From the NCBI GenBank assembly GCA_963765085.1, contig CAVXVL010000037.1, positions 29,852-93,851 on the forward strand: DNA of 64,000 nucleotides. The letters run 5' to 3'. The position numbers and the translations under genes were made by a program. Below the pieces are notes generated by a model. That model was not told the origin of the DNA. It searched no databases and saw only the letters and a list, made by a program, of their open reading frames with translations. The DNA comes from Terriglobia bacterium. Its GTDB lineage: Bacteria > Acidobacteriota > Terriglobia > Bryobacterales > Bryobacteraceae. Numbering within the stretch: position 1 is the stretch's first letter; every line of letters starts with the position of its first letter. Positions 10,753 through 32,365 of the stretch are shown in pieces.

Positions 10753-11039
10753 AGGAGTTCCGTCCGATATTCTCAGGCATCACAATCTCTCTGAATCAGC
10801 TCTGCATTAGCAAGCGAAATGCCACGGCGAGACGCGGCATTTCTAGCCGCATCCCCACGCAAAAACGCATCGATATACACGCGTGTTTTCTATGCGCTTT
10901 CAGCGCATTTTCCTGTCGTTTCGTGTAATTTATCGGCGCGCGATTCGGCGCACATTCGGGAAGAGGCGGCGGGCCGAAGCGCCCCACCGCTGGAGACTTT
11001 GGACACAGAGTCCAGACCGTAGGCCCCTGTTATGTAACT

Positions 11040-11807
11040 CTACGGACGCGGCGGAATGGGACCTTCGTAGCGATGATTGCTGAGGCTCTCCGGGTGAGGG
11101 TCGCCACGATGGCAGGTAAAGCAGGTCACTTCCTGTTTGCCCGCGGGATAGACGCCGGTGCCGGGGAAGTTCGCATTGACCGCGCGCAGGAGCTGGATCA
11201 TTTTTCGCGTGATGTCTTTGCGCGGGTTCGTATCGTCGGCCTGAGGTCCTTTGCCGCCGTGACAGAAGCCACAATCCACATTGAGCGCGTCGCGCCAGTC
11301 TTCCATCAGCGAATGCGCTCCGTGAACCGGAGTGTCCGGCGGCAGCGCTTTCAGATTCACTCCCGGGGTGGTCTCCTTGTTTGGTCCGTTGCGGGCCTCG
11401 CGAGGGGCAATCCAATAAAATGCCGCCTTGGTTTCCGGCTGCGTCTTGCCGCGATGGCACGTGAAGCAATCGACCTCGTGGTAGCCGCGCGGAAACGGGC
11501 CGGCCGTGGACGGGAAAAAGGTCTCCGCGTCCCGCACCAGCGTGATCATCTTGCGCGCCGTTTCCTTGTGCGGGTTATCGTCGGACGCGAAGTCTCCGGC
11601 CACGTGACAGTAGGTGCACTGCACGCCGAGCGCTTCGTTGAATCCGCGCATGACGTCCATCAGGTCGACACCTGTCGCGGGGATCAGCTTCAAGTTCTTC
11701 GGCGTGGGGGCAGGGGCCTTGGTCTCTTGGGCCGAAAGACAGCCGGCTGCGATCATCAGCGTCAGAACAGCGCGCAGGGGGATGTGCTGGATCTTGATAA
11801 AGGGCAT
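11040..11807 (-). CDS. tetrahaem c-type cytochrome, photosynthetic-reaction-centre cytochrome c subunit-like
   Basis: ATG at 11807. N-terminal signal/lipobox-like MIAAGCLSA. Four CxxCH motifs (CTYCH, CFTCH, CGFCH, CFTCH) arranged as two internally duplicated halves. Confidence 0.8.
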   Translation of the reverse strand: MPFIKIQHIPLRAVLTLMIAAGCLSAQETKAPAPTPKNLKLIPATGVDLMDVMRGFNEALGVQCTYCHVAGDFASDDNPHKETARKMITLVRDAETFFPSTAGPFPRGYHEVDCFTCHRGKTQPETKAAFYWIAPREARNGPNKETTPGVNLKALPPDTPVHGAHSLMEDWRDALNVDCGFCHGGKGPQADDTNPRKDITRKMIQLLRAVNANFPGTGVYPAGKQEVTCFTCHRGDPHPESLSNHRYEGPIPPRP

Positions 11808-11946
11808 CTCATCTAAAGTACTGCAAAATGGCTCTAAGAACACAGGGGGTGGGGCCTGTGGCGTAGCCCTTCAAACCTTGCATTGAAAACACTTAGGTGT
11901 CAATGGTCTGGGAATTGCGCCGGATGGAACAGAAAGCGGAGATCTT

Positions 11947-12220
11947 ATGACTACGTTTCTGAGAGCATTCATTCCCTGCACGATGTTGTTCGCCGCGACT
12001 GCGGTGGCTCTGCCACATGCCCCGACTGCAACGCGGTGAGGTCATCGCGTTTCCAATGACGGGAGAAAATGCCGCGCCGATTCCCAGCGGATTCATTCAC
12101 GACTGGATCGGCGCTGCATTCGTGCCCGGCGTCGCGCTCGAAAAGAGTATTGCGTTTCGTCGAGATTACGCAATCTCACAAATAGTACGGGCCCCTCATC
12201 GCGCGAACGAATCTTCATGA
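11947..12220 (+). pseudogene. possible remnant of a secreted-protein gene (signal peptide plus ~65 aa in a second frame)
   Basis: ATG 11947 encodes MTTFLRAFIPCTMLFAATAVALPHA and stops after 30 codons. ORF 12017..12220 continues in another frame (GEVIAFPMTGENAAPIPSGFIHDWIGAAFVPGVALEKS) and then ends abruptly. Confidence 0.25.
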
Positions 12221-12249
12221 CCGGCGTGACGATCAGGATTTAATTTCCA

Positions 12250-12729
12250 CTACAGAGTGCGTTCGAGGGAACGGGGAGAAACCCAAAAAACGGGATGAGA
12301 CGCGGGTTCGCTGGCGCGGTCGCGTGCCGTGGCCGAGAGCAACACCGGGGCGTCGGCGGGGGGAATGAGTTGGATGTATCCCATCTCCAGGGCGCAACGT
12401 GTCCACTTCTTCAAGATCTGACCGACGCGGGAACGCACGACGCCGTAGCGGACAGCAATTTGACCGCAACTCCAGCCCAGTACGAAAAACAATTGCGCAA
12501 TTTTACGTTGCAAGTCGGGGCGGTCCTCGCGGTCGAAGATCGGCACCTGACTCGGAAAGCTAATGGCGTTCGTCCGCAGGGCTTGACGCAAGCGATCGAT
12601 ACGCAGACTATCCAACGGAACTTCGCCCAATGGAGGGAGCGTCCGCCCCTCATACCGCTGCCGCCGCATCGGTTTCGGCATCATTTCCGAAACGGTGCGA
12701 TAACCGTCCGACATCTTCCCCGCGTGCAT
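12250..12729 (-). CDS. stand-alone sigma-70 region-4-like HTH protein
   Basis: The segment DLQRKIAQLFFVLGWSCGQIAVRYGVVRSRVGQILKKW resembles the region-4 HTH of ECF sigma factors. No region 2 is present. The start codon is uncertain (several in-frame Met within the first 21 codons). Confidence 0.5.
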   Translation of the reverse strand: MHAGKMSDGYRTVSEMMPKPMRRQRYEGRTLPPLGEVPLDSLRIDRLRQALRTNAISFPSQVPIFDREDRPDLQRKIAQLFFVLGWSCGQIAVRYGVVRSRVGQILKKWTRCALEMGYIQLIPPADAPVLLSATARDRASEPASHPVFWVSPRSLERTL

Positions 12730-12750: not shown

Positions 12751-12767
12751 TATCAAAAAGGCATAAA
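12751..12767 (-). promoter_or_regulatory. KdpE-operator-like direct repeat (TTTATG-CCTTT-TTGATA)
   Basis: Minus-strand reading tttatgcctttttgata, lying between the RR stop (12775) and the HTH gene start (12729). Confidence 0.4.
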
Positions 12768-12774
12768 CGGGGAT

Positions 12775-13506
12775 CTATTCGTCGGAGACGCCGCTCTGCT
12801 CAAAGTCCGAAGGATTGCGGAAGCGATAACCGACCCACGCTTCGGTGAGAAGGTATTGCGGGCGTGCCGGATCGTCTTCGATCTTCTTGCGCAACATGCG
12901 AACGTAGGTGCGTAGATATTCGACTTCGCCGCCGTATTCCGCGCCCCACACGGCGCGCAACAGCCTGACGTGGGTGAGCGGCGCGTTCTGATTTTTCATG
13001 AAGAACGAGAGCAGATCGATCTCTTTGGGAGACAGTCGAATTTCTTCGTCGCGTTTCCATAAGAGCCGCCGCTCGAGGTCCATCCGGAGATCGCCGGCAC
13101 GCAGGATTCTTGGATCCGCTCCGCTGGCCTGAGTCCTGCGCAGCACGGCTCCCATGCGCGCGACCAGCTCGCGAAACCGGAAAGGCTTCGTGACGTAATC
13201 GTCGGCGCCGGCGTCGAGCGCGCGGACCTTATCCTCTTCGGCGTCGCGCACGGTAACCATTACGATGCCCGTCTTCGGCGCAAAGGCGCGAATCTGGCGG
13301 CACGCCTCCACGCCGCTCATGCCGGGCATGTTGACGTCGAGCAGCACGAGATCGAAAGGGCGCTGTTGGATGAACGTAAGCGCCTCCGCACCGGTGCCTG
13401 CTTCTTCGACGGTGAAGCCGCCGGCCGCGAGCGAGGACCGGATGACCTTGCGAAGCGCGGGCTCGTCGTCCACCACCAGCACGTTAACCAGCGGCGGCGA
13501 GATCAT
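12775..13506 (-). CDS. OmpR-family response regulator, KdpE-like
   Basis: Receiver domain (VVDDEP...DLVLLDVNMPGMSG...KPF) plus a winged helix with KdpE-like LSPKEIDLLSFF...VWG...YLRTYVRMLRKKIEDDPARPQYLLTEAWVGYRF. Confidence 0.9.
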   Translation of the reverse strand: MISPPLVNVLVVDDEPALRKVIRSSLAAGGFTVEEAGTGAEALTFIQQRPFDLVLLDVNMPGMSGVEACRQIRAFAPKTGIVMVTVRDAEEDKVRALDAGADDYVTKPFRFRELVARMGAVLRRTQASGADPRILRAGDLRMDLERRLLWKRDEEIRLSPKEIDLLSFFMKNQNAPLTHVRLLRAVWGAEYGGEVEYLRTYVRMLRKKIEDDPARPQYLLTEAWVGYRFRNPSDFEQSGVSDE

Positions 13507-15022
13507 GATTTTCGTTTTCTGGGATCGGCAAAGTCAGGCGAAACGTAGTCCCCTCCACTGCGGCGCTTTCGTTGTCCAGATCGAGCGTACCGCCGAGCGC
13601 TACGGCGATTTTGCGAGCAACATATAACCCAAGCCCGGAGCCATGCGTATGGCGCGCGTCCATCCCCCGGTAGAAGCGATCGAAGATTTTGGTTCGCTCG
13701 CTCGACGGTACCGGATTTCCGCGGCTGATCACGCGCAGCGTAATCGACCGGCCGGCGCGTTGAACGTGCAGCGTGACGACCGAACCGGGCACGGAGTATT
13801 TGCAGGCGTTATCGAGAAGCTGGCTAAGCGCGAGACGAAGCAGTTCCGGATCGGCAAGCGCTTCGCTCGAATCGCAATCTTTGACGACGGAAATCTGATG
13901 GCCGGCGGACTGTCTCTGATACTGTTCCACGGTGTCGGCGATGACCGAACACACGTCGATGAGTTCGATCCACGGTTTGACGGCCTCGCGCTCCAGGCGC
14001 GCGGTGCGCAGAAGACGAGTGGTCAGACGTCCCAATCGAGCGGCCTCCAATTCCACGGTTTCCGCCATTTCGCGATGATGCGGACCGAGGCTATCCGCCT
14101 CGCGCAGGGAACCCGCCGCGGCGAGAATCGTCGACAGCGGGGTCTTGAATTCGTGCGCGAGCGCGTCGAGGACGGCGGTTCGATACGATTCAGTGTGAGC
14201 GGCGGCGGCGGCGCGGCTGGCCTTCGCGAAGGAATGAGTTCTTTCCAACTGCGCGGCGGCCAAGGCAGCCAACGGGCCCGCGGTGAGTTCCGGAGTTTCG
14301 AGTCCCTCAAATCCGATCGCGCCGATGGTGCGTCCTCCCACGCGGATGCACCGGCCCGAAATGCTGAGTTCCGGATCTTCCATGTCCCTCGATCGGATGA
14401 AGACTTGTCCGGTCTTTTCCTCGAGCAGAACGCCCGCGCGTCCCGCGATATGCACCTCGGAACTGAGCGCATCGTACAAACACACAGCCCTCAGACTAAA
14501 TACTTCTAGAAACGGCTCCAGAAAATCGTGCCTGCCGTCCACATCCGGCTCGAGGGCGAGCAGTTGCTGCGCCAGATTGTAGAGCTGCTGGAGCTGCTCT
14601 TTCTGAAGCCGCGTCGATTCCGTTCTGGTTCGTACTTTCGTCACTAGCCGCGTGATCACCAGCCCGGTGGCGAGAAACGAGATCAGCGCGACGATGTCGA
14701 GCGGATTCTGGACCTGAAACGAAAACCGCGGGTACGTGAAGTAAAACTCGAGGGATCCGACCGCGAGAACCGAAACAACAACCGAGGAAGCGAAGTCACC
14801 CGCCAGACACAGCAGCACGAGATCCAATAAGAAGCCAAAACTCGCCGTCGCAAGATTGAGCTCCAGGCGGTACATGACCAGCGTTAAGATGGCAACGCTC
14901 AACGCTCCGATTGCCGACCACTTCACGGCCCGCCAGAAGCCGCTTCGCCGTATCCGTGGAAGTGTGAACGTCCTCGACGTGAATTTCAGCGCTTGCCGCA
15001 GCGGCCGTGACGTTTCAAACAT
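13484..15022 (-). CDS. DUF4118-GAF-HisKA-HATPase sensor histidine kinase (KdpD C-terminal-type, lacking the KdpD N-terminal/Usp domains)
   Basis: Four TM helices of DUF4118 type. H-box LAHEFKTPLSTI, N-box LLDNACKYS, G-boxes DRFYRG and GSGLGLYVA. Overlaps the downstream RR gene by 23 nt. Confidence 0.9.
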   Translation of the reverse strand: MFETSRPLRQALKFTSRTFTLPRIRRSGFWRAVKWSAIGALSVAILTLVMYRLELNLATASFGFLLDLVLLCLAGDFASSVVVSVLAVGSLEFYFTYPRFSFQVQNPLDIVALISFLATGLVITRLVTKVRTRTESTRLQKEQLQQLYNLAQQLLALEPDVDGRHDFLEPFLEVFSLRAVCLYDALSSEVHIAGRAGVLLEEKTGQVFIRSRDMEDPELSISGRCIRVGGRTIGAIGFEGLETPELTAGPLAALAAAQLERTHSFAKASRAAAAAHTESYRTAVLDALAHEFKTPLSTILAAAGSLREADSLGPHHREMAETVELEAARLGRLTTRLLRTARLEREAVKPWIELIDVCSVIADTVEQYQRQSAGHQISVVKDCDSSEALADPELLRLALSQLLDNACKYSVPGSVVTLHVQRAGRSITLRVISRGNPVPSSERTKIFDRFYRGMDARHTHGSGLGLYVARKIAVALGGTLDLDNESAAVEGTTFRLTLPIPENENHDLAAAG

Positions 15023-15334
15023 GAGTGTCGGAGATGACCGCTAGAGCGGAAACCCCCAGCCTCCTGCGAGCGTCCCCGGAACTGTGCTTTCGACGCCCGA
15101 TTTCCCGCGGGCGGCTCGGGATCGTGGCGAGACTGATAGATGGCGGAAGATCGCGACGAGTATGTTTCCTGCTTGCGGCAAGGCGGGGCGTTTCGCGGCG
15201 TCGGACACTTTCACCGTTCCTTTCGCAACGTCCTACAAGTCTTACCGAGAATCTGAGTAAAGAGTTGAAAATCGCACGACCCGCGCAGCATGGGCGGAAC
15301 TTCATCGTGCTGCATACGAGTGTGGGCCACGAAT

Positions 15335-15351
15335 CGTAAAAAAGGCATAAA
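15335..15351 (-). promoter_or_regulatory. KdpE-operator-like direct repeat (TTTATG-CCTTT-TTTACG), facing the HK/RR operon
   Basis: Minus-strand reading tttatgccttttttacg, 313 nt upstream of the HK start at 15022. Confidence 0.5.
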
Positions 15352-15675
15352 AGCCGGGGGAGGGTTCCGCCGACGGCGAGCGCCTTTTCTTCATGTGGTT
15401 ATGATAGCCCTCCTTCGCTCGCGTGCTATAAAATAACACGAATTGCGCAGGCCGGGGCGAGTGCAAGTCCAAACGCAGGAAGGCCGCGCCATTTTTATAG
15501 ACTTTATACGCCAAATGCCGCGTGACAGGTCCGCGGAGCGCCTTCCGCAGGGCCGCTGCAAATGCACTCGCTTTAGCAGCACAAAACGAACACCCGCTAT
15601 GCGGGATATCGGCCCGAAAAGGGGAAAACGTTTATAAGCCCGATCAAAATTTCCTTGGACGGATTTCGCTCTCTC

Positions 15676-15692
15676 TTTATGACTTTTTTACG
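15676..15692 (+). promoter_or_regulatory. KdpE-operator-like direct repeat (TTTATG-ACTTT-TTTACG), facing the porin gene
   Basis: Plus-strand tttatgacttttttacg, 170 nt upstream of the proposed GTG start at 15862. An isolated TTTATA half-site lies at 15631-15636. Confidence 0.5.
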
Positions 15693-15861
15693 GCCTAAGA
15701 CCCACACTGACCATATACCCATGAGTCAGTGTTTTGCTCGCTTAGCAACATCTACTGACACCTGCTGGCCAACGTCAAAGCCAAACCCACGTAGGATGCG
15801 GCTGAGTCATCCACGACGAATAGTTTCACGCCGGCGCCTGAAGAAGAATAGGAAAGAAATA

Positions 15862-17520
15862 GTGCTGCTCCTCAAGAGGCGCAAGAGTTCGCAGGCGCTC
15901 GTCTTCGTCGCACTGGTGGGAACTTGCTATGTGCGCAGTGCTTCCGCGCAGGAGGCGCGTACCGTTCCCGATGCGGACCGATCAGCCGCCATGGATAATT
16001 CCGATTCCAACTTCGCGTCCGCGGCGGATACCATAGAAGTGGCGAATGCTGCAGATTCCAAAGCCGATGCGGACCCCCAATCGGTCGTCACCCCCGCGCT
16101 CCCCATTCCTGCTGCCGCGGCAGTACCCGCGGCGAATGCGGTTCCGGCCCAAGTACAGCGCGGATTTTGGAGCCGTTTCATCAAGGCATACGCGGATGAC
16201 TGGCATCCTCCGGCCGCAAGCGAAGAGTCGAAGTATCGCGGATATCCTCCCGTCGAGAGCAGCCCCCCGTATCCGTTCAGCGTGTGGCCGATCGGCGGCA
16301 CGGTGTGGATCGGCTATAACAACGCGACCGCGTATCCTCTGACCACGGCACTCCAAAACGGCCCGCACGGCGACTGGTGGAAGAAGGCCAACATTCAAAT
16401 TTACGGATGGGCCAACGCGGGAATGAATTTCAGCAGCAGCACCGAGCAGGTGGGCGGCAAGTACGCGAACTCACCCGCGGCCTACGATCAGATCCCCAAT
16501 TCCATTCAACTCGATCAGCTCGTTACGTATATCGAGCGCACTCCCGATACCGTCCAGACGGATCATTTCGATTGGGGCTTCCGCTTTACGAGTCTGTATG
16601 GCGGGAACTATCGTTTCACGACATCGAAGGGTATCTTTAGCCAGCAGCTTTTGACCATCCAGCCGGATGGGACCCTCGGCAAGCAGTACGGCTGGGATCC
16701 GGTCATGGCATACATCGATCTGTATTTTCCGCATGTCGCCTCAGGCATGATTCTGCGCGTGGGGCGTTACGTTTCTCTGCCAGACATCGAAGCGCAGTTA
16801 GCCCCCAATAACTACACCTACACGCACTCGCTCACCTACACGTATGACTGCTATACACAGACAGGCGTGAACGCGACTATCAAGTTGAGCGATCACTGGA
16901 CCTGGCAGGGCGGCATCTCTCCTGGGTGCGATGCGGCTCCGTGGAAAGCGGATGCTCGCGTCACGGGAAACACCTGTTTGCAGTTTATGTGGCGACAGGG
17001 CCAGGACGATATTTACGGCTGCGCCAACTCGATCAACAACAGCAAGTACGCCTACAACAATCTTGCAGCCTATTACTTGACCTGGTATCACAAGATCAAC
17101 GCCCAGTGGCACGTTGATTTCGAGTCCTGGTATCAGTACATGAAGGATACGCCCAATATATTCAATCCAATTGGGCAGACGCTCGTCGAGACCAATTCGA
17201 ACGGCGCGTGGTGCAACCAAGTGTCTCAGGTGACCTGCTACGCTCCCGAATGGGCCTTCTTGAATTACACGAACAGGCAGTTGGGGCCGCACGATTCGAT
17301 CAGTTTGCGCGACGAATATTTCGACGACATCAAGGGTCAGCGGACCGGCTATAAGGGCCATTACGTGGAAGGTGGGGTATCCTGGAATCACTGGATTGGC
17401 ACCACAATCGTTCTGCGCCCGGAAGTGCGGTGGGAGCACAACTTCGAAAATCCGGCCTACGACGGCGGAAATCGTCACAGTCAATTCATGTTCGCTGGTG
17501 ACGTGATCTGGTTCTATTGA
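15862..17520 (+). CDS. outer-membrane beta-barrel porin-like protein
   Basis: In-frame GTG at 15862 preceded by AGGAAAG gives the signal peptide VLLLKRRKSSQALVFVALVGTCYVRSASAQE. Alternating amphipathic strands and a C-terminal ...GDVIWFY aromatic terminus. The ORF-track start at 15655 would add ~70 non-signal residues and would cover the operator-like site. Confidence 0.65.
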   Translation: MLLLKRRKSSQALVFVALVGTCYVRSASAQEARTVPDADRSAAMDNSDSNFASAADTIEVANAADSKADADPQSVVTPALPIPAAAAVPAANAVPAQVQRGFWSRFIKAYADDWHPPAASEESKYRGYPPVESSPPYPFSVWPIGGTVWIGYNNATAYPLTTALQNGPHGDWWKKANIQIYGWANAGMNFSSSTEQVGGKYANSPAAYDQIPNSIQLDQLVTYIERTPDTVQTDHFDWGFRFTSLYGGNYRFTTSKGIFSQQLLTIQPDGTLGKQYGWDPVMAYIDLYFPHVASGMILRVGRYVSLPDIEAQLAPNNYTYTHSLTYTYDCYTQTGVNATIKLSDHWTWQGGISPGCDAAPWKADARVTGNTCLQFMWRQGQDDIYGCANSINNSKYAYNNLAAYYLTWYHKINAQWHVDFESWYQYMKDTPNIFNPIGQTLVETNSNGAWCNQVSQVTCYAPEWAFLNYTNRQLGPHDSISLRDEYFDDIKGQRTGYKGHYVEGGVSWNHWIGTTIVLRPEVRWEHNFENPAYDGGNRHSQFMFAGDVIWFY

Positions 17521-17543
17521 TCTATGGGAGAGGACATCAACTC

Positions 17544-17843
17544 GTGAGCGACCGAAGACAAGTGCTGCGGGGCCTCGCCGGGCTGTTTTCCGCGGGCGCG
17601 GTGGCGGCGTCGGCGCAAGACGCAACACCCAAGCGGGAAAAAAACGTCGTCAAGGGCGAACGCGAAGCGAAGAAGATGCTGCTCCTGATGGATAAGGACA
17701 ACAACGGCAAAGTGTCGAAACAGGAGTTCATGAGTTTCATGGAAGCGGAATTCGATCGCCTGGATGTAGACAAAAGCGGCGAATTGGACGTCAAAGAATT
17801 GACGCAAGCGAGAGTTCGAACGACGACGGGAGTTTCGCGGTAG
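17544..17843 (+). CDS. exported EF-hand calcium-binding protein (two EF loops)
   Basis: GTG 17544 after GGGAGAGGA. Tat-like leader SDRRQVLRGLAGLFSAGAVAASA. EF loops DKDNNGKVSKQEF and DVDKSGELDVKEL. Lies immediately downstream of the porin stop. Confidence 0.7.
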   Translation: MSDRRQVLRGLAGLFSAGAVAASAQDATPKREKNVVKGEREAKKMLLLMDKDNNGKVSKQEFMSFMEAEFDRLDVDKSGELDVKELTQARVRTTTGVSR

Positions 17844-18364: not shown

Positions 18365-19633
18365 ATGAAGAGACATTTACAGGTCCTATTGTTTTTATGG
18401 GGCGGCCTGGCGGCATCGGATTTGCTCGCCCAACGCCCCTTGACGTGGGAAGAAGTCAAAACGAAATTCTCGGCCGCGAACCCGACTTTACAGGCCGCGC
18501 AACTCAATATTGACGAAGGCCGCGCAGCGGAAATTACGGCGTATCTGCGCCCCAATCCGGATTTCAGTCTGACGGCCGACGGCTTTCAGATCGCGCGTAA
18601 CAACGGCGTGTGGGCCCCGCTCAGCGGCGTCGTCGAAACGCCGGGACTCAGCTACCTGCACGAGCGGCAGCACAAGCGCGAACTGCGGCGCGACCAGGCG
18701 AAGGAGAACACGGCGATCTCAGAATCGACGTACCTCGATCAGGAACGTAATCTGGTCTTCACTCTGCGCAGCGCCTTCGTACAAGTGCTGCAGGCGAAAG
18801 CGGTGCTGCAGAACGCGACGGAGAATCTGGCGTATTGGGATAAGGAACTGGATGTGAATCGCACGCGCTTCAAAGCGGGCGACCTTGCGCAAGTCGATCT
18901 AAATCGTCTGGAATTGCAGCGCGTTCAATTCGAATCCGATTTTGAAACCGCGACCGTCAATCTGCGAACTGCGAAGATCCAACTCCTGATGTTGATGAAC
19001 GAGCGGACGCCGATCGAGCGGTTCGACGTGACCGGACCGTTTGAATTCAGCGCGGAACTGCTGCCGCTCGAAAACTTTCATAAGGTCGCCATGGAGACGC
19101 GGCCCGATTTGAAGGCCGCGATGCAAAACATAGAGCTCGCGAAAGTCACCCACGATCTTGCGGTCGCCAACGGCTCGACCGATCCGACCTGGAGCGTGTG
19201 GTATTCACACAATCCGTCCTTCGCGAATTCCTCGGCGGATGAAACCGTCGGGGGCAGCGTGAGCATCCCTTTGCGCATCTTCGATCGCAATCAGGGACAA
19301 AAAGCGCTCACGCAGATCGACATCGGAAGGAACGAACGGTTGCGCGATGCCAACGAAGCGCTCGTGTTCAGCGACGTCGATTCGGCGTACTACACGATCG
19401 TTCAGAACGTGAATCTTCTGAAGCCGTACAAAGACAAATACCTGCCGCTGGCAACCGATGTCCGCGACAGAATGTCGTTTTCGTATCGAAATGGCGGCGC
19501 GTCGTTGCTCGATTTCCTGGATGCAGAAAAATCGTATCGCGATACGCGGTTGGCTTACTTGAATTTGATTGGCTCGTATTTAACAGCCGGCGCCCAAATG
19601 AATATGGCCGCGGGCCGGGAGGTCATCCAATGA
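18365..19633 (+). CDS. TolC-family outer-membrane efflux protein (CzcC-like)
   Basis: 422 aa with a signal peptide and two OEP-type repeats (LTWEEVK...NPTLQAA; ...ARPDLKAA). The stop overlaps the next start (ATGA at 19630). Confidence 0.85.
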   Translation: MKRHLQVLLFLWGGLAASDLLAQRPLTWEEVKTKFSAANPTLQAAQLNIDEGRAAEITAYLRPNPDFSLTADGFQIARNNGVWAPLSGVVETPGLSYLHERQHKRELRRDQAKENTAISESTYLDQERNLVFTLRSAFVQVLQAKAVLQNATENLAYWDKELDVNRTRFKAGDLAQVDLNRLELQRVQFESDFETATVNLRTAKIQLLMLMNERTPIERFDVTGPFEFSAELLPLENFHKVAMETRPDLKAAMQNIELAKVTHDLAVANGSTDPTWSVWYSHNPSFANSSADETVGGSVSIPLRIFDRNQGQKALTQIDIGRNERLRDANEALVFSDVDSAYYTIVQNVNLLKPYKDKYLPLATDVRDRMSFSYRNGGASLLDFLDAEKSYRDTRLAYLNLIGSYLTAGAQMNMAAGREVIQ

Positions 19634-20823: not shown

Positions 20824-20835
20824 GAACCGCATCAG

Positions 20836-23800: not shown

Positions 23801-23978
23801 GCCACTGTCGCATGGGATTGGATCGGATTCGCAGCGGCCTTTCGCCATCGTGATCGTCGGCGGACTGATCTGCGCGCTGTTCATCAGCATCTTCGTGCTC
23901 CCCACGCTGTATGTGTGGATTGCCGGAGAAGACGACATTCTGCCGGAACGGGAAGCGGAGTTCGACGAACACGGCTGA
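20836..23978 (+). pseudogene. CzcA/CusA-family heavy-metal RND efflux pump; about 7 frameshifts as assembled
   Basis: MIRKLVDFALENRFLVFAAAILLF... from ATG 20836. Conserved RND sequence can be followed across ORFs 20849.., 21129.., 21292.., 21674.., 22539.., 21674-frame again and a final frame ending ...GIGSDSQRPFAIVIVGGLICALFISIFVLPTLYVW...DEHG, with TGA at 23976-23978. Frame changes are near 20915, 21195, 21225, 21760, 22490, 22945 and 23806. Confidence 0.85.
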
Positions 23979-24823: not shown

Positions 24824-25963
24824 CTATTTTTTCGCGGGCCCGGCCACCCGAGGCAAGGAGAAAAGGACGCACAGGCGATCCCTTTCCGGCGGTTTGGGAT
24901 CGAAGTCGAGCGTTCCGCCGTGCGCGAGCGCAATTTCGCGCGCTTGATACAGCCCCGCCCGTGCCTCTCCCCACGCGCTGCGCGCCCGCGTTCCACCGTA
25001 AAGAGGCTCGAAAACGCGATCGCGCTCCAGCGGCGAAAGTGAGCCGGCGTGGCTTGAAATTTCCACCACGGCAAAGGCTTCGCGCGCTGCGATTTCGACC
25101 GTAACGGAGGATTCAGTCGCCGCCTGTTTGCTCACGAAATCGAGCACTTGACCCAGCGCGACCAGGATCAAGTCCGCATCCGCGAGCACTTCGCAAACCT
25201 CCCCTCGATTCGCGAAAGTGATTTCGCGTTCGGGAGACTTTTGCGTGTACTGCTGCACAGCCTGCGCGGTCAGCATCGTGAGGTTGGTCGTATCCACGCG
25301 GGGTTGAATTTCGCCCTGGTCCAACCGGGCGATCCTATCCACCCACGAAATCAGGTTCCCTAGCCGCGAGGCTTCCTCCTCCACCATACGCGCCATTTCC
25401 AATTGCACCGGTGACAGAGGCCCTGCCTCGCGAAGTCCGCCGGCAGCCGCGAGAATGGCCGTCAATCTGTTCTTGAACTCGTCGCCTAATTGGCGGCGCA
25501 GGCGCGTGCGCTCGTAAAGAGCGGCGACGAGAGCAATCAACGGCTCGACGGTTTGCTCGGGATCCTTCAGCCCTTTAAAGGCAATTACCGCGGTAATCCG
25601 GCCGTTCGCCCGGATGCATCGGATGGTGATGGCGGAGGCGGGATCGTCGTTATCCTTGCCGCTCAGACAGGCATTTCGTGTGAGGGACTCCAGTTCAGGC
25701 GTGGCCGATCCGATGCGATACACCGTTTCCGTGCGCGCGTCGAACAAGCAGATCGCGGTGATCCCGAAAACGCCCTTGAACGGCGTCAGAAGTTCGGTTC
25801 CGTCGGTGATATTCGGCTCCAAAACGAGCAGGTGCTGAGCGAGTTGGAACAGTTGGTGCAGCCGTACCTTTGACAGCTCCGACACTTTCGCGCCTTTCGT
25901 CTTGCTGGGAGATGTGGGGTTCGCGCGATCGCTGGATGCGCCTCCGCCGACTTGGGAGGTCAC
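24824..25963 (-). CDS. soluble degenerate histidine-kinase paralogue (pseudo-kinase): no TM domain, phospho-acceptor His replaced by Asp
   Basis: Aligns with HK 13484..15022 and HK 30019..31638 from the post-membrane linker (LHQLFQLAQHLLVLEP) to the C-terminus. The H-box reads LGDEFKNRLTAIL (paralogues: LAHEFKTPLSTIL). The N-box reads VLDFVSKQA (paralogues: LLDNACKYS). The G2 box reads EARAGLYQA (paralogues: GSGLGLYVA). Confidence 0.8.
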   Translation of the reverse strand: MTSQVGGGASSDRANPTSPSKTKGAKVSELSKVRLHQLFQLAQHLLVLEPNITDGTELLTPFKGVFGITAICLFDARTETVYRIGSATPELESLTRNACLSGKDNDDPASAITIRCIRANGRITAVIAFKGLKDPEQTVEPLIALVAALYERTRLRRQLGDEFKNRLTAILAAAGGLREAGPLSPVQLEMARMVEEEASRLGNLISWVDRIARLDQGEIQPRVDTTNLTMLTAQAVQQYTQKSPEREITFANRGEVCEVLADADLILVALGQVLDFVSKQAATESSVTVEIAAREAFAVVEISSHAGSLSPLERDRVFEPLYGGTRARSAWGEARAGLYQAREIALAHGGTLDFDPKPPERDRLCVLFSLPRVAGPAKK

Positions 25964-26018: not shown

Positions 26019-26035
26019 CATAAAAAAGTCATAAA
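26019..26035 (-). promoter_or_regulatory. KdpE-operator-like direct repeat (TTTATG-ACTTT-TTTATG), facing the pseudo-kinase gene
   Basis: Minus-strand reading tttatgacttttttatg, 56 nt upstream of the start at 25963. Confidence 0.5.
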
Positions 26036-26224: not shown

Positions 26225-26241
26225 TCTATGAGTTCTTCATG
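26225..26241 (+). promoter_or_regulatory. degenerate KdpE-operator-like direct repeat (TCTATG-AGTTC-TTCATG)
   Basis: Plus-strand tctatgagttcttcatg, about 420 nt upstream of the porin start at 26660. Confidence 0.35.
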
Positions 26242-26387: not shown

Positions 26388-26404
26388 TTTATGACTTTTT
26401 CATG
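26388..26404 (+). promoter_or_regulatory. KdpE-operator-like direct repeat (TTTATG-ACTTT-TTCATG), facing porin 2
   Basis: Plus-strand tttatgactttttcatg, 256 nt upstream of ATG 26660. It is preceded by AAAATTTCCTT at about the same distance as at 15646-15656 upstream of porin 1. Confidence 0.5.
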
Positions 26405-26659: not shown

Positions 26660-28333
26660 ATGCACCACAAAAAGCATAGGAAAGGCCGAGGTGTCCTCGT
26701 TGCGAGCTTCTGCACGGCGGGGCTCCTCGCTTTCGCTGCGCAGAACGTCGTTGCGCAACAAGTCGCCGCGCAGCCGCCAGCGGTCGAACAAACGGTTTCC
26801 GACCAGAGTTCGGCGGACGCCAAACTGGACGCACTCAAGAAGCGCGCCGCGGAACGAGGAGCCGCCGCGGAGAAAGACACAAAGGATCCGGTATTAGTGG
26901 CGGATGCCTCACCGGCGCCAGCCCCCGATGCCGATGCGCAAGCCGCCCCGCCCGCGGCTCCGCCGGCGGCCGCGCCCGCGGCTCCCGCCGTGGATAACGA
27001 CACGCCGTTCGCGTTCGCCGACTTTACGTGGATGCTTTCCAATCCGCGTAATCACGACGAAGTTCTCGATGGCAAGTATTATTCCGGTGAGTTCCGCATC
27101 GATACCAACTACATGTACGATCTGAATCACCCGATCGATCACACGCTCGGTGGCACCACCGAAGGTGAGCGCACCGGTGAATTTCTGATTCAGGCCGTCA
27201 ACGTCGGCGGCGACTTCCATGCCGGCAATATGCAGGGACGCATCCTAACGCAGTTCGGCGCTGTCTCCACCGCTGTCCCGCGCAACGATGCCAGCTATAG
27301 CTTGGGCCAGTGGCAGTTAAATGATGCCTACCGGTATATGACGGAAATGTATGCCGGCTATCACATCAACTACAAACACGGTTTAAATATTCAAGTCGGC
27401 GACTTTCTGTCGTTTATTGGTCTGTTCAGCTATTACAGCTTTGATAACTGGACCTATCAGCCGTCTTATGTGTCGTCGAACACGCCGTGGTTCTTCACCG
27501 GAATGCGCGCGCAGTTCTTCCCCACGAATAAGCTGAAGATCGAGCCGTGGCTCATCAACGGCTGGCAGACCTATGCCAAATACAACGGCCGTGAAGGCGT
27601 CGGCGGTCAGATACTTTACCGGCCCACCGGAAACTGGGACTTTGTATGGAACAGCTATACCCTCGGCCGCGATACTTTGGGCAATGATCAGCGCTCGCGC
27701 TACCACGCCGACTGGAGCCAGGAGTGGAAGTTTTACGAAAAGGCCGACGGAAAAGGTTTCCACCGCATGGCGACGACCATGACCGAAGATTTCGGTTGTG
27801 AAACCGGCGGTGGTGTCGCCTGCCGCGGCAACTGGAGCAAAGGCATCCCCGCGCAGAACTTCATCGGCATCATGGGGTATATGAAGATGTGGCTCGATAC
27901 CAAGGAACGCTTCGCCTTCAACTTTGGCGGCGGCGTGATGAATAACCCGGGCCGTTATCTCGTGCTGCTTCCCCCGATCAACGGGGCGACGGCCACCACC
28001 GGAACGCCATACTTCCCGGAAGCCCCGGGTCTGCCCTTCAAGGGCTACGATTTCCAGGTCAACTTCAGTTACATGCCGAGCCAGTGGGTTACCTGGATGT
28101 TCGAGTTCACGCAACGCGGTTCGACCGTCCCGTACTTTACCGGTTCCGGCGGTGTGACGCCGCAGGCGGTTCCCGGTACGTACGTAAACACCGGCAACCC
28201 TGGTTCGTATACCTGTAACGACGGAGTCGCGTCCGGCAGCGCCACCGGTTGCGGAGGCGACGGCGGCCTGTGGAGTCCGGATCTGCGCAAGCAGGAACGC
28301 CGGTTCACGATCGCCCTTCTGGTGAAACTGTAA
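26660..28333 (+). CDS. outer-membrane beta-barrel porin-like protein with Ala/Pro-rich N-terminal linker
   Basis: Signal peptide ...LLAFAAQNVVAQQ, low-complexity PAPAPDADAQAAPPAAPPAAAPAAPA, then ~430 aa of alternating beta-strand pattern rich in Y/W/G/N. RBS AAGGAAGGA lies upstream. Confidence 0.65.
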   Translation: MHHKKHRKGRGVLVASFCTAGLLAFAAQNVVAQQVAAQPPAVEQTVSDQSSADAKLDALKKRAAERGAAAEKDTKDPVLVADASPAPAPDADAQAAPPAAPPAAAPAAPAVDNDTPFAFADFTWMLSNPRNHDEVLDGKYYSGEFRIDTNYMYDLNHPIDHTLGGTTEGERTGEFLIQAVNVGGDFHAGNMQGRILTQFGAVSTAVPRNDASYSLGQWQLNDAYRYMTEMYAGYHINYKHGLNIQVGDFLSFIGLFSYYSFDNWTYQPSYVSSNTPWFFTGMRAQFFPTNKLKIEPWLINGWQTYAKYNGREGVGGQILYRPTGNWDFVWNSYTLGRDTLGNDQRSRYHADWSQEWKFYEKADGKGFHRMATTMTEDFGCETGGGVACRGNWSKGIPAQNFIGIMGYMKMWLDTKERFAFNFGGGVMNNPGRYLVLLPPINGATATTGTPYFPEAPGLPFKGYDFQVNFSYMPSQWVTWMFEFTQRGSTVPYFTGSGGVTPQAVPGTYVNTGNPGSYTCNDGVASGSATGCGGDGGLWSPDLRKQERRFTIALLVKL

Positions 28334-28420: not shown

Positions 28421-29137
28421 ATGTGCCACGTCTCGAAAGCATTTACGGCGACGTTACTTTCCTTCTCCGCAGTCGCCTTGATCGCCGCCGCCGATCCGTC
28501 CTGGCGCGCGAAGTCCATGGATCAGTGGACGGCGCAGGACGCCAAGCAGGTGCTCACGAATTCCCCGTGGGTGAAAACGACCACGGTGAAAGCATACATC
28601 CCCAAGAACGAGGATCAACTCCGGCAAGCCGGGCGCATGGGCGGAGGCCAAGGCATCGGACTCCAGGGTTTGGATCCGAAGGGTTTTCTTTTGGGCGCGA
28701 GCACAAAGCGAAATCGTCCCGAAGCGGGTCCTGTCAATGCGCTGCAGGTTCGTTGGGAGAGCTCGGAGGCGGTTCGGGCCGCGGAGTTGAAGCTCCCGAA
28801 CGAAAGCGCACCCGACGCCTGGAAGGGCGAGTATTATGCCATCGCGGTCTACGGTGTGCCGATCCCGCCGGAGGATTTGAGCAACGAGTCGAATAACTGG
28901 AATTTGAAGAAGCTCGCGACACTGAAACGGGACGGTAAGAAAGAAGTGGCGCCGATCAAGGTCGACGTCTCGGTGCAGACGGAAAAGCTCAGCATCGTCG
29001 TTTACTTTTTTCCGCGGAGCGCGGCCATTACAACGGACGATGATCACGTGGAGTTCGACGCCCGCATCGGACGGCTGATGTTGGATCAGAAATTCGACGT
29101 CAAGGAAATGCTGCTTGGCGACAAACTTCAGCTGTGA
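28421..29137 (+). CDS. secreted protein of unknown function, 'W-x2-D/E-A-x2-V-x-NSPW' family, paralogue 1
   Basis: RBS AAGGAGG; signal peptide. Conserved blocks shared with 29245..29967 and 48238..48990: WTAQDAKQVLTNSPW, RWES, YYAIAVYG, VVYFFPRS, RIGRL. Confidence 0.6.
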   Translation: MCHVSKAFTATLLSFSAVALIAAADPSWRAKSMDQWTAQDAKQVLTNSPWVKTTTVKAYIPKNEDQLRQAGRMGGGQGIGLQGLDPKGFLLGASTKRNRPEAGPVNALQVRWESSEAVRAAELKLPNESAPDAWKGEYYAIAVYGVPIPPEDLSNESNNWNLKKLATLKRDGKKEVAPIKVDVSVQTEKLSIVVYFFPRSAAITTDDDHVEFDARIGRLMLDQKFDVKEMLLGDKLQL

Positions 29138-29244: not shown

Positions 29245-29967
29245 ATGTCTCACGTGAAATTGCCGTTCGTGTTGTCGCTTAGCGCCGTCCTTCTGCTCGC
29301 TGCCGATCCCGTTTGGAAGACGAAACCCGTTCCGGCGTGGACGGAACAGGACGCCGTGCAGGTTATCACGAATTCTCCGTGGTCGAAACTGACGACCGCG
29401 GGAATCGCGCGCCTCCAATCCGAAGACGAGCGCCGCGAGGGCGGAAATATGGGACAAGCCACCGGCGTCGGGTATGACGGAATCAATAACGGAAAAAAGC
29501 CCATGCCCAATGCTTCGAGCGTCTTCGGCGGGCCGAACGCCGACCCGAAGCGCACCGGCCAGGATACGTTTTACAAGCTGCGATTAGTGTGGGAGAGCGC
29601 GCTCCCGGTTCGCCTTGCCGAATTGAAGGCGCGCGACGTTGAACCGCCCACGTCGACCACCGAATGCTACATGCTGGCCGTCTACGGTGTTCCCGGAAAA
29701 TACTTTGTGGGCGATCCGCAAAAATTAGGGAAACCCCTGATCGAGGACGCGGTCCTCAAACGAGAGGGCCAAAAAGACGTAAAGCCCTTTAACGTGGAAG
29801 TTTTTCAGCGCGACAGCGGTCCCGTAGTCGTCTACATGTTCCCGTTGTCGGCCGAAATCTCAAAAAAAGACGCGTCTGTCACGTTCGAGGCAAAACTGGG
29901 ACGGCTCATCATCTCTCAGGTATTTAATTTGGCGGAGATGGAGTTTCAGGGGAAGCTCGAAATCTAG
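29245..29967 (+). CDS. secreted protein of unknown function, NSPW family, paralogue 2
   Basis: Tandem to paralogue 1. Blocks WTEQDAVQVITNSPW, VWESALPVRLAE, YMLAVYGVP, VVYMFPLS, KLGRL. Confidence 0.6.
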   Translation: MSHVKLPFVLSLSAVLLLAADPVWKTKPVPAWTEQDAVQVITNSPWSKLTTAGIARLQSEDERREGGNMGQATGVGYDGINNGKKPMPNASSVFGGPNADPKRTGQDTFYKLRLVWESALPVRLAELKARDVEPPTSTTECYMLAVYGVPGKYFVGDPQKLGKPLIEDAVLKREGQKDVKPFNVEVFQRDSGPVVVYMFPLSAEISKKDASVTFEAKLGRLIISQVFNLAEMEFQGKLEI

Positions 29968-30018: not shown

Positions 30019-31638
30019 ATGCCTCCACAAAACGATCTGGAAGATCCAACCGACTCGCTCATTCCTGCGAGCCTGCGATCGCTTCTGGCAATCGGTTCGA
30101 ATCTTCTCGATTTCCCCGCCTCCGGCAGGCCCCGAGCTAACATAGAAGCAGGCCTAAAAATGGAGTTGGCAAAAGGGGGCGCCCCGTGGGATCGCGTCAG
30201 GCGCACATTGTATGGCATCGTGGCGGTGGTGCTTGCCACGGCTCTCTGTTTCCGGCTGCATTTAGGGGCGTCCGGAACCATCCCCGTATATCTGCTCATT
30301 GTTGTACTCAGTTCCCTGGCCGGCGATTTATTATCCGCCGCGATCATCTCCCTGCTCTCCGTGCTGTCGTTGGATTATTTCTTCACTAGCCCGCTTTTTT
30401 CCCTGCGCGTGAGTAATCCGACCGAAATCCTGGCGTTGCTCTCTTTTGCGATGACGGCTTTGGTGATTACGCGTCTGGTGACGCGCGTGCGCGCGGAAGC
30501 GGAATCGGCCAGCCTTCAGAAGGACCGGCTGGACCGGTTGTATCAGCTCTCCCAGCAGCTTCTGGCATTGGAACCGGGCGATGCCGCAAGCCCCACCTTT
30601 CTCGCTCCATTCCGCCGCCTTTTCAACGTAAACGCAATTAGTATTTTCGATGCGGGGACGGGAGACCAGCACCTTGTGGGAGAATCGCGTTTTGGACTGA
30701 CGGAGAAAACGCGTCAGGCCTATCTACAGGCCCGCGATTTTGAAGATCGAACCGCGGGCATCGCCGTTCGGTGCGTCCGCGTGGGAGATCACTTGATCGA
30801 AGCGATCGGATTCGAAGGGCTTCGTCATCCGGATGAAACCGCCGGCCCGCTTACGGCCGTCACGGCGACGCTGCTCGCGCGCATTCGGGCGTTTCGTAAG
30901 GAGAGTTCCGCATCGGCCGCCGCACAAACGGAAATGTATCGCTCCGCCGTACTGGATGCCCTGGCCCACGAATTTAAGACGCCCTTGGCTACCATTCTGG
31001 CGGCCATAGGGGGCCTGCGCGAATCGGGTCCGTTGGCGCAAGAGCAAGTGGATATGGCCGATACCGTGGAGAACGAAGCGGCGCGCCTGGGAAGTCTGAC
31101 TTCGCGGCTGCTCAGAACAGCGCGGCTCGACAGGGAAGATATTAAGCCACGCATGGAATGGATCGATCTGGCGGCTCTCGCGGCAAAAGTCGCGGTATCC
31201 TACGCCGCCCGGTCGTCGGACCGCGAAATAAAAGTGGCGTCCCACGAGCCGGTGCTGGTGCCCGCGGATCCGGAGTTGCTGCAGTTGACGGTGGGACAAC
31301 TGATCGAAAACGCCTGCAAGTATTCGCAACCCGGTTCGATCGTTCGCGTCGGTCTGGAGGTTATGGGTGATTTCGTTTCCTTGAAGGTGACCAACACCGG
31401 GAGTTCGATATCCCCGCACGAACGGCGGCGCATTTTCGATCGCTTCTATCGCGGTGCGGACGCCCGGCGCTCGACGTCGGGCTCGGGTTTGGGATTGTAC
31501 GTGGCACGCAAAATCGCGATCGCTCACGGCGGCGCTCTGGATCTGGAGACCGGAACACAAGTTGAGGATAACGTGACATTTTCGTTGAAGTTGCCCTACG
31601 CCGCGCAAGGAATGGAATATGCCGCCGCAACAGAATAG
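30019..31638 (+). CDS. DUF4118-GAF-HisKA-HATPase sensor histidine kinase (KdpD C-terminal-type)
   Basis: Paralogue of 13484..15022. H-box LAHEFKTPLATI, N-box LIENACKYS, G-boxes DRFYRG and GSGLGLYVA. Overlaps the RR gene by 20 nt. Confidence 0.9.
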   Translation: MPPQNDLEDPTDSLIPASLRSLLAIGSNLLDFPASGRPRANIEAGLKMELAKGGAPWDRVRRTLYGIVAVVLATALCFRLHLGASGTIPVYLLIVVLSSLAGDLLSAAIISLLSVLSLDYFFTSPLFSLRVSNPTEILALLSFAMTALVITRLVTRVRAEAESASLQKDRLDRLYQLSQQLLALEPGDAASPTFLAPFRRLFNVNAISIFDAGTGDQHLVGESRFGLTEKTRQAYLQARDFEDRTAGIAVRCVRVGDHLIEAIGFEGLRHPDETAGPLTAVTATLLARIRAFRKESSASAAAQTEMYRSAVLDALAHEFKTPLATILAAIGGLRESGPLAQEQVDMADTVENEAARLGSLTSRLLRTARLDREDIKPRMEWIDLAALAAKVAVSYAARSSDREIKVASHEPVLVPADPELLQLTVGQLIENACKYSQPGSIVRVGLEVMGDFVSLKVTNTGSSISPHERRRIFDRFYRGADARRSTSGSGLGLYVARKIAIAHGGALDLETGTQVEDNVTFSLKLPYAAQGMEYAAATE

Positions 31639-32365
31639 CGTGTTGATTGTGGATGACGAGTCGTCGCTGCGAACGGCCCTGCGCAGCTCGCTCACGGCGA
31701 GCGGATTTGCCGTGGGCGAGGCGCGCAATGGAGAGGAAGCTCTGGGGACGGTTCAGCATACGCCGTTCGATCTGGTCCTCCTCGATATCAATATGCCGGG
31801 GATCAGCGGTCTGGATGCGTGCCGCCGATTGCGAGAGATGGCTCCCACGCTAGCCATCGTGATGGTCACCGTCCGCGAGCTGGAAGATGACAAGGTCCGT
31901 GCGTTGGAAGCGGGCGCCGACGACTACATCACGAAGCCTTTTCGCTACCGGGAACTGACTGCTCGCTTGCGCGCGGTTCTGCGCAGAACCCGCACTCAAC
32001 CGGCGGCGGAACCCTCCCCTATCTTGGAAGCTGGCGAACTGAAGCTCGACGTCGAGAAGCGCCTGCTGTGGAAGGGAGAAGAACAGATCCGTCTCTCTCC
32101 CACCGAATTCGAGCTGCTCACCTTCCTCATGCGCAACGAGAACGCACCGCTCACGCACGCGAAGCTGTTACGCACGGTGTGGGGGCCGGAAAAAGGCGAG
32201 GAGCTCGAATACTTGAGATCCTACGTCCGGATGCTTCGCAAAAAAATCGAGGATGATCCAGGCAAGCCGCAATACATCTTGACCGAGCCCTGCGTCGGAT
32301 ATCGCTTCCGCAATCCTTCCGATCCGGACGCACCGGCGGTACCGATCGAGGGATCGGACTATTAG
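31619..32365 (+). CDS. OmpR-family response regulator, KdpE-like
   Basis: Receiver domain plus winged helix LSPTEFELLTFL...VWGPEKGEELEYLRSYVRMLRKKIEDDPGKPQYILTEPCVGYRF, close to the E. coli KdpE pattern. Confidence 0.9.
   Translation: MPPQQNSVLIVDDESSLRTALRSSLTASGFAVGEARNGEEALGTVQHTPFDLVLLDINMPGISGLDACRRLREMAPTLAIVMVTVRELEDDKVRALEAGADDYITKPFRYRELTARLRAVLRRTRTQPAAEPSPILEAGELKLDVEKRLLWKGEEQIRLSPTEFELLTFLMRNENAPLTHAKLLRTVWGPEKGEELEYLRSYVRMLRKKIEDDPGKPQYILTEPCVGYRFRNPSDPDAPAVPIEGSDY

Follow-up and report, generated by a model that had tools for sequence, protein, structure and literature searches.

A 64-kb window of a Terriglobia bacterium (Bryobacteraceae) contig (CAVXVL010000037.1, positions 29,852 to 93,851; coordinates below are those of the 64,000-nucleotide window) contains two oppositely oriented 17-mers, here named boxes A+ and A-, which lie between a histidine kinase (HK)/response regulator (RR) operon and a divergently oriented porin operon and which resemble the operator of the E. 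coli regulator KdpE. The best overall explanation, to which a probability of roughly 0.7 is assigned, is that these and further boxes in the window belong to promoters controlled by KdpE-family regulators. In soil Acidobacteria, a KdpE-type protein thus probably switches on back-to-back promoters for porins and for its own genes.

Two divergent box pairs in the window

Read directly in the window, box A+ is TTTATG-ACTTT-TTTACG and box A- is TTTATG-CCTTT-TTTACG (Table 1). Each is composed of a pair of 6-bp direct repeats whose period is 11 bp and whose 5-nt spacer is T-rich, and the two 17-mers, their strands and their repeat structure are exactly as claimed in an earlier note on this DNA. With up to two mismatches, the pattern TTTATGNNTTTTTTACG matches the window four times, against an expectation of 0.04 derived from 100 dinucleotide-preserving shuffles of the window, none of which contained four matches. 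Boxes B- and B+, the remaining two matches, constitute another pair of opposite orientation at a second locus (locus B).

A position weight matrix (PWM) derived from these sites returned six sites above a cut-off of 18 bits, the additional two being designated boxes 5 and 6. All six are intergenic, in a window of which only 15% is intergenic. The PWM maxima in shuffled sequences were mostly between 8 and 15 bits, with a single one at 17.5 bits. No other promoter region of the 64 kb was found to carry the box motif in the PWM scan, and its confinement to these promoter regions indicates that it is regulon-specific and not a general promoter feature of this organism.

A composite promoter of fixed geometry

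The four strong boxes and box 5 are each followed, at a distance of exactly 10 bp, by a -10-like hexamer (CACACT, CACACT, CATACT, TAACGT and CATACT), giving a composite design of TTYATG-N5-TTYAYG, 10 bp and a hexamer of the form CAYACT or TAnnnT. At locus A, the box, the 10 bp and CACACT together constitute an inverted repeat of 33 nt. A single metagenome scan with the strict pattern TTYATGNNTTTTTYAYG-N10-CAYACT returned 132 instances on 120 contigs. Because this pattern already imposed the -10 hexamer, the offset was tested separately on 102 further boxes from the same contigs, scoring at least 18 bits and not matching the strict pattern. nAnnnT occurs exactly at +10 in 74 of these 102 boxes, while other offsets (20 to 39) account for 0-9 boxes each.

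Start codons provide a second indication of the role of the hexamer. In a family of von Willebrand factor A (VWA) proteins the ATG lies 4-9 nt 3' of CACACT, at exactly 6 nt in five of the eight loci shown, while the composite at box 5 reads box-N10-CATACT (12740-12735)-5 nt-ATG (12729), the ATG being that of a small helix-turn-helix (HTH) gene. Such proximity of start codon and hexamer points to leaderless mRNAs, with 5' ends at the expected site of transcription initiation, and thereby to the hexamer being a real -10: the VWA mRNAs look leaderless, and so does the message from which the small HTH protein is made. The position of box 5 is kept in the related locus L083 (at 6101) and in 20 metagenome instances.

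A scan for consensus sigma70 promoters returned none in the intergenic region of either locus A or locus B, an absence that is consistent with activator dependence and is not evidence by itself. Since the box ends 10 bp 5' of the -10, it would span about -39 to -23 and thus overlap or replace the -35 element.

Conservation and gene associations

Composites of this architecture and fixed geometry are conserved in relatives and recur beside the same kinds of genes. The family of porin A comprises more than 3800 homologs, is centred on the Bryobacteraceae and reaches a best identity of 78%. In L083 and L085, loci A and B are fused and co-directional in the order porinB-X-X-(X)-HK-RR-HTH-porinA-EFhand-...-OEP-CzcB-RND, with boxes preceding porin B, the HK, the HTH gene and porin A. 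It had been proposed that one box of locus A faces an operon for a DUF4118 kinase and its regulator, and the other a porin and an EF-hand gene; this is indeed the case, and both boxes are kept in the orthologous clusters. The arrangement in which a box facing the soluble HK diverges from a porB-type porin, as for box B-, is kept in L089, L091, L112 and L204 with box-to-box distances of about 90 to 350 bp, and a box identical to B+ precedes porB-type porins in L085 and in many metagenome loci.

Enough downstream sequence for evaluation was available for 113 of the 132 strict metagenome instances, and 107 of these are followed, in the same orientation, by a recognised family, namely BBP2 porins (43), acidobact_VWFA proteins (20), HTH proteins (20), HK/RR operons (16), 145-aa coiled-coil proteins (six) and others (two). 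In total, 234 boxes were recorded on the 120 contigs, which are of soil and peat origin; these and the window boxes mostly stand before outer-membrane porins. The acidobact_VWFA (TIGR03436) targets are secreted VWA proteins, for example in L086 (at 2922), L103, L150 and L154; none is present in the window.

The box at kdp operons

The E. coli KdpE operator given in the earlier note proved correct: the kdpFABC promoter of E. coli (L001), read directly, contains cattTTTATACTTTTTTTACAcccc, oriented towards kdpF. KdpE half-sites have been described as TTTA(T/C)A with a critical TTTA core, i.e., the first four bases, and the site is located at -72 to -50 (PMC3264566). The window boxes share the architecture of two 6-bp repeats with an AT-rich 5-bp spacer, and their half-sites end in G rather than A (TTTATG-NCTTT-TTTAYG). 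In the window no box lies upstream of kdpFABC, while in L005, L006 and L208 the same box type does precede this operon. The closest relatives of the window regulators are found in Acidobacteriota, which carry near-identical boxes 5' of their kdpFABC operons (Table 1). The operator-like reading is therefore upheld by both the E. coli architecture and the acidobacterial kdpFABC boxes.

One of these operons belongs to L208, a Bryobacteraceae metagenome-assembled genome (MAG), where TTTACGACTTCCTTACG-N10-TATTCT (3682-3714) is followed by a gene for a 149-aa protein, kdpF-A-B-C and two genes for the N-terminal part of KdpD, with no HK/RR genes beside them. Box type and geometry of this kdpFABC promoter are those of the window promoters, and so in the nearest lineage examined kdpFABC does not carry a clearly different operator. 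In L010, an Acidobacteriaceae MAG, a BBP2 porin that is 50% identical to porin A (10892-12280) lies between the regulator and kdpF-A-B-C, and of the genomic hints that this porin family serves K+ uptake this is the most direct. L164 carries, on one strand, kdpC-KdpDN-KdpDN-(fragment)-HK-RR-[box]-HTH-RR2-[box]-porin-X. Its first regulator, in the kdpE position, has the recognition helix EYLRTYIRLIRRK and belongs to the same subfamily as the window regulators. A JGI contig similarly carries a porin cluster directly followed by a convergent kdp operon that ends in two stand-alone KdpD N-terminal genes.

Because the kdp operon adjoins the porin cluster in L164 and the JGI contig, because the L208 operon has the box and because a porin lies within the L010 operon, the regulon is read as expanded rather than redirected, with kdpFABC probably remaining a member. 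The earlier proposal of a KdpE-type regulon rewired towards outer-membrane permeability is accordingly restated as one of expansion, while its statement that the 64 kb contain no kdpFABC pump genes holds: homologs of KdpA, KdpB and KdpC, as well as the KdpD N-terminal domain, were not detectable in the window.

These Acidobacteria typically encode the N-terminal part of KdpD (PF02702, with or without Usp) in two tandem stand-alone genes, usually at the end of the kdp operon. Such genes occupy 230-2418 in L164, 8988-11065 in L208 and 8898-11110 in L207, the last having no kdpFABC within 10 kb.

KdpE- and KdpD-like features of the regulators and kinases

An alignment to the structure 3ZQ7 indicates that the equivalents of the KdpE residues Y-L-R, R200 and T215 are kept in both window regulators, RR-A (EYLRTYVRMLRKK...LTE) and RR-B (EYLRSYVRMLRKK...LTE). 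Of the corresponding KdpE residues, R193, the arginine of Y-L-R in the recognition helix, has been reported as 'conserved only among KdpE orthologs', and R200 and T215 as required (PMC3264566). The diagnostic value of Y-L-R was assessed on 80 OmpR-family regulator loci, taken from a genome-collection scan with the regulator alignment, whose generic pattern (GADDY[VI]TK) retrieves mostly unrelated OmpR-family regulators, which are usable as controls. kdpABC was found within 10 kb at 16 of 27 loci with Y-L-R and at two of 53 loci without it (Fisher p=5e-8). As Y-L-R tracks kdpABC adjacency, the DNA-reading part of RR-A and RR-B is considered to be of KdpE type.

The kinases HK-A and HK-B are composed of a DUF4118 membrane domain followed by HisKA and HATPase_c, as is characteristic of KdpD, and tblastn aligns them to residues 393-880 of E. 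coli KdpD. In relatives, the KdpD N-terminal and Usp domains are present as stand-alone genes. The window regulators have no kdpFABC beside them, and the member of their helix subfamily in L164 is 56% identical. We infer that the DUF4118 kinases and the RR-A/RR-B-type regulators represent the split KdpD/KdpE of the Bryobacteraceae.

Proposed mechanism and alternative explanations

It is quite likely, judging from the sequence comparisons, that the boxes act as activator sites bound by the adjacent KdpE-family regulators. At each box, a sigma70-type promoter without a -35 element would have its activator site. A dimer of phosphorylated RR-A and/or RR-B would bind head-to-tail to the two TTYAYG half-sites, at roughly -39 to -23, and would recruit RNA polymerase as PhoB does at pho boxes. 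In this manner, the box A- promoter would autoregulate the DUF4118-kinase/regulator operon, while the box A+ promoter would drive the genes for porin A and the EF-hand protein and would originally have driven a CzcCBA-like RND efflux operon as well. Further promoters of this kind, at least four in the window, would serve the operon porin B-X-X-HK-B-RR-B, the soluble kinase paralog and the small HTH protein.

Given this mechanism, K+ limitation is slightly favoured as the input. The system would then be the Kdp regulon as it exists in Bryobacteraceae, in which KdpD is divided between stand-alone N-terminal sensors and DUF4118 kinases, and which has been widened to outer-membrane cation porins in the way that the Pho regulon includes PhoE. 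More tentatively, the Kdp system may have been both dismantled and enlarged, such that KdpD-N proteins, DUF4118 kinases and the soluble kinase feed KdpE-type regulators controlling, through the rigid class II promoter, kdpFABC, the many BBP2 porins as dedicated K+/cation pores, and secreted VWA/EF-hand proteins.

Several observations weigh against this account. The description of the regulators as KdpE-like holds for the recognition motif (Y-L-R, R200 and T215) and fails for the protein as a whole. RR-A and RR-B score 182 and 180 bits, respectively, against the NCBIfam KdpE equivalog NF007820, whose cut-off is 325, and they score about equally against PhoB, MtrA and YycF, the best PDB matches being RegX3 and KdpE at near-equal level. 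Formally, then, the regulators do not qualify as KdpE equivalogs, nor the kinases as full-length KdpD. The regulators do not qualify as PhoB orthologs either, the helix being EYLR[TS]Y and the half-site TTTAYG instead of a TGTCA-type pho box. In the promoters themselves the -10 hexamers are weak, and only leaderless gene starts indicate where transcription begins. Moreover, with kdpFABC missing from the window, the evidence on kdp promoters is taken from relatives, and the boxes of kdp type deviate a little, in their spacer (ACTTC) and their second half (YTTAYG), a difference that could separate two regulator paralogs.

Further points concern the input and are shared with a less probable yet serious alternative, according to which the boxes and their binding are as proposed, while the KdpDE-derived paralogs respond not to K+ but to Ca2+ or other divalent cations, or to envelope or ionic stress. 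The likeness to the KdpE operator would then be an inherited DNA specificity. HK-A and HK-B lack the KdpD N-terminal (PF02702) and Usp sensor domains, and none of the 132 strict composite instances has kdpA downstream. The co-regulated EF-hand, acidobact_VWFA/MIDAS and CzcB-type RND proteins, together with a third X paralog beside a CDF cation-efflux gene, fit divalent cations equally well, and there are two paralogous HK/RR pairs, along with a soluble HK, in the window. However, the half of E. coli KdpD made up of its membrane and C-terminal parts suffices to sense K+, L164 has a regulator of the same subfamily immediately following kdpC-KdpDN-KdpDN-HK, the kdpFABC operon of L208 carries the box and lacks HK/RR genes, and the L010 kdp operon includes a homolog of porin A. 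Reading of the box by the small HTH protein (of sigma70-region-4-like fold) or by an alternative sigma factor, with the 17-mer as an unusual -35/UP-type element, is improbable. Its gene is kept directly after the regulator, it shows weak similarity to Sigma70_r4 and HTH_23, and the box overlaps the -35 position, but these Pfam matches are below threshold, tandem direct repeats of 11-bp period are characteristic of head-to-tail OmpR/PhoB winged-helix dimers and not of a single HTH or sigma region 4, and no such HTH gene was seen at the acidobacterial kdpFABC promoters, where the box stands beside KdpE homologs. That the 17-mers are terminal inverted repeats of a MITE-like mobile or invertible segment of ~340-370 bp is suggested by inverted arms of 33 nt and 19 nt flanking 324 bp at locus A and 348 bp at locus B. 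This idea is effectively refuted, a recombinase gene not having been searched for: in the orthologous clusters the boxes are single and co-directional, one before each gene, the box-to-box distance varies where the divergent pair is kept, the interior is not conserved between the two loci, arm identity is limited to the box and the -10 hexamer, and the arms, taken singly, are direct repeats of the kind seen in OmpR-family sites. Finally, intergenic DNA is more AT-rich than coding DNA, so that AT-rich stretches might arise by chance in an intergenic region of a GC-rich sequence; the excess of matches, their conservation across loci diverged in protein sequence and the fixed -10 offset refute this explanation, the least probable of all.

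Gene content of loci A and B

The coordinates of the boxes and genes under discussion are collected in Table 1.

Table 1. Boxes, -10-like hexamers and genes of loci A and B, with boxes at kdpFABC operons of relatives
Feature	Position	Strand	Sequence	Remarks
Box A+	15676..15692	+	TTTATGACTTTTTTACG	faces porin A; PWM 32.4 bits; orthologous boxes before porA-type porins in L083, L085
-10-like hexamer	15703..15708	+	CACACT	exactly 10 bp 3' of box A+; within 33-nt inverted repeat; fixed-offset test
Box A-	15335..15351	-	TTTATGCCTTTTTTACG	faces HK-A/RR-A operon; PWM 29.7 bits; HK/RR boxes in L083, L085 and 16 metagenome instances
-10-like hexamer	15319..15324	-	CACACT	10 bp 3' of box A-
Box 5	12751..12767	-	TTTATGCCTTTTTGATA	between RR-A and small HTH gene; PWM 20.2 bits
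Box B-	26019..26035	-	TTTATGACTTTTTTATG	faces soluble HK (24824-25963); -10-like TAACGT at 26008-26003; PWM 33.9 bits
Box B+	26388..26404	+	TTTATGACTTTTTCATG	faces porin B; -10-like CATACT at 26415-26420; PWM 31.2 bits
Box 6 (weaker)	26225..26241	+	TCTATGAGTTCTTCATG	10 bp, then TATGCT at 26252-26257; PWM 18.4 bits
kdpFABC upstream box, L006			TTTATGACTTCTTTATG	more half-sites follow in 11-bp phase
kdpFABC upstream box, L005			TTTATGACTTCCTTATG	
kdpFABC upstream box, L013			TTTATAGATTCTTTAGG	
kdpFABC upstream box, L014			CTTACGATCTCTTTACA	
kdpFABC upstream box, L010			CTTACAACTTCTTAACG	box upstream of porin
Small HTH-like protein, 159 aa	12250..12729	-		own box promoter; 59% identical to L083 118-aa protein
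RR-A, OmpR/PhoB-family response regulator	12775..13506	-		KdpE-type recognition helix EYLRTYVRMLRKK
HK-A, DUF4118 + HisKA + HATPase_c	13484..15022	-		equivalent to KdpD C-terminal half
Porin A, BBP2, PF07642	15862..17520	+		probable GTG start at 15862
Secreted EF-hand protein	17517..17843	+		after porin A; kept in L083, L085
Soluble HK paralog, HisKA + HATPase_c, no DUF4118	24824..25963	-		3' of box B-
Porin B, BBP2	26660..28333	+		order porin-X-(X)-HK-RR common to L002, L085
Secreted protein X, two tandem paralogs	28421..29137 and 29245..29967	+		between porin B and HK-B
HK-B, DUF4118 kinase	30019..31638	+		50% identical to HK-A
RR-B	31619..32365	+		65% identical to RR-A; helix EYLRSYVRMLRKK

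Box 6 lies ~160 bp 5' of box B+ and points to porin B, and it is possible that it marks a second promoter or an auxiliary site. Further YATG half-sites occur in the locus B intergenic region at 26184, 26205, 26226 and 26237, in a phase of 21/21/11 bp, and porin A of L085 is preceded by a tandem box pair. The two porins of the window are 26% identical to each other.

The small HTH protein, of 118-159 aa, is always encoded directly 3' of the regulator and has a weak similarity to sigma70 region 4 and HTH_23; it could be a co-regulator. The soluble HK shares its sensor-core, HisKA and HATPase regions with the DUF4118 kinases and has no membrane domain.

Downstream of the EF-hand gene, on the + strand, are genes for a 147-aa protein and for the OEP, MFP and RND components of an efflux system. 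The OEP gene (18365-19633) is intact. The MFP (CzcB-like) and RND genes (19658-23975) contain at least five frame changes relative to their intact L085 orthologs, with a frame switch near 20164-20170 in the MFP gene and RND pieces at 20836-20916, 20921-21220, 21226-21759, 21761-23806 and 23808-23975. These are either pseudogenes or the result of assembly indel errors.

Protein X is a secreted protein of ~240 aa, up to three copies of which are present between porin B and HK-B in relatives. In the window, a third paralog (48238-48990, - strand) is encoded directly 3' of the CDF cation-efflux gene (49070-50134). Protein X has no Pfam or NCBIfam match. An AlphaFold model built from the three window paralogs is of moderate confidence (pLDDT 63, pTM 0.64) and has a beta-sandwich core, for which a PDB fold search returned nothing significant (best E 0.05, TM at most 0.28, generic beta-sandwich), so that no function can be assigned from the fold. 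Selection of genes by the longest ORF picks the wrong strand at the first X gene (X1): the 245-aa ORF at 28454-29191 (-) is an antisense shadow of the real X1 gene and is probably spurious.

Between the promoter of HK-A and its start codon lies a leader of ~290 nt (15023-15318). Long HK leaders (~270-290 nt from the start of the motif) were also observed in four metagenome relatives, while elsewhere the kinase follows directly after the promoter. An Arg-rich ORF inside the HK-A leader (15015-15305, -) is probably spurious. A search of the whole window against Rfam at gathering thresholds gave no match, and the long porin and HK leaders thus fit no known riboswitch or RNA family. The sequence 'TACTGACACC', common to both porin leaders, was discarded as a candidate element, as it is not kept across 45 porin leaders, among which only the ribosome-binding site AAGGAAGGA recurs.

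Significance

To our knowledge, the question of how K+ passes the outer membrane under scarcity has rarely been asked. If the input is K+, the loci described here offer a testable model for how abundant and poorly studied soil Acidobacteria adjust the permeability of their outer membrane to a specific nutrient. On the more tentative reading given above, this would be the first nutrient-specific outer-membrane leg of a Kdp response, with the BBP2 porins as a 'PhoE for potassium'. E. coli KdpD/KdpE is a textbook case of a single-target system, whereas in the present loci many promoters of a single fixed design appear to be under the control of a KdpE-type regulator. The system would also be a natural example of a split, multi-kinase KdpD. 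That one operator lies upstream in E. coli but overlaps the -35 position here, and thus is used in two geometries, bears on how OmpR-family proteins contact RNA polymerase. Furthermore, the regulon signature TTYATG-N5-TTYAYG-N10-CAYACT may be used in annotating genomes of soil Acidobacteria.

Comparison with known systems

The E. coli KdpE/kdpFABC system resembles the one described here in half-site, spacer and period, in the Y-L-R helix and in a kinase with DUF4118 and a HisKA/HATPase core. It differs in the last base of the half-site (A in E. coli, G in the TTTAYG described here) and in the position of the site, the window boxes being located at about -39 to -23, overlapping the -35 position, and not at -72 to -50. 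E. coli KdpE was also found by genomic SELEX to be a single-target regulator (PMC5934670), whereas here at least six promoters are present in a stretch of 20 kb and dozens more in relatives. The targets in this case comprise porins, VWA proteins, kinases and an HTH protein, and the system has a split KdpD and occurs twice in the window. KdpE is known to act beyond kdpFABC in S. aureus, enterohaemorrhagic E. coli (EHEC) and Caulobacter (PMC3610689; PMC3482499; bioRxiv 10.1101/2023.07.05.547876). The extra targets are virulence or miscellaneous genes there, with no porin family reported among them in these papers, while in the present system such additional targets predominate and have a single rigid promoter design in common.

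The KdpD N-terminal sensor domain is reported to be a separate protein of the kdp operon in Deinococcus and cyanobacteria (PMC5716572). A separate N-terminal protein is likewise encoded in L164, L208 and the JGI contig; the acidobacterial loci differ in having two tandem KdpD-N genes and a DUF4118 kinase and regulator located in a porin cluster, sometimes far from kdp. A search of the literature, whose incomplete coverage makes it weak evidence of novelty, found no description of kdp-linked or KdpE-controlled porins, or of BBP2 porins in connection with potassium.

Among systems that control porins, EnvZ/OmpR regulates ompF and ompC under ionic/osmotic conditions through tandem direct-repeat sites. 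It thus shares with the present system an OmpR-family regulator, tandem repeats and outer-membrane porin targets, but the OmpR sites F1-F3 and C1-C3 lie 5' of a recognisable -35 and have another consensus, and the porins are of the OmpF type instead of BBP2. PhoE, in turn, is the starvation-induced outer-membrane porin of the E. coli Pho regulon. Porins are recognised members of the Pho regulon, and the pho box is situated '10 bp upstream of the -10 sigma70 binding consensus TAN3T/A' (PMC1906773). The window promoters have this PhoB-type class II arrangement, i.e., 11-bp tandem repeats ending 10 bp 5' of a TAN3T-type -10 and replacing the -35, for which there is no consensus. As is proposed here, the Pho regulon furthermore brings together an inner-membrane transporter of high affinity, an outer-membrane porin induced by starvation, and two-component autoregulation. 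The two systems differ in the recognition helix (RTVDVH in PhoB-like proteins versus EYLR[TS]Y), in the half-site and in the inferred nutrient. By analogy, therefore, the system may be described as PhoB/PhoE-like in its promoter logic and regulon composition, and as KdpE-like in its DNA specificity.

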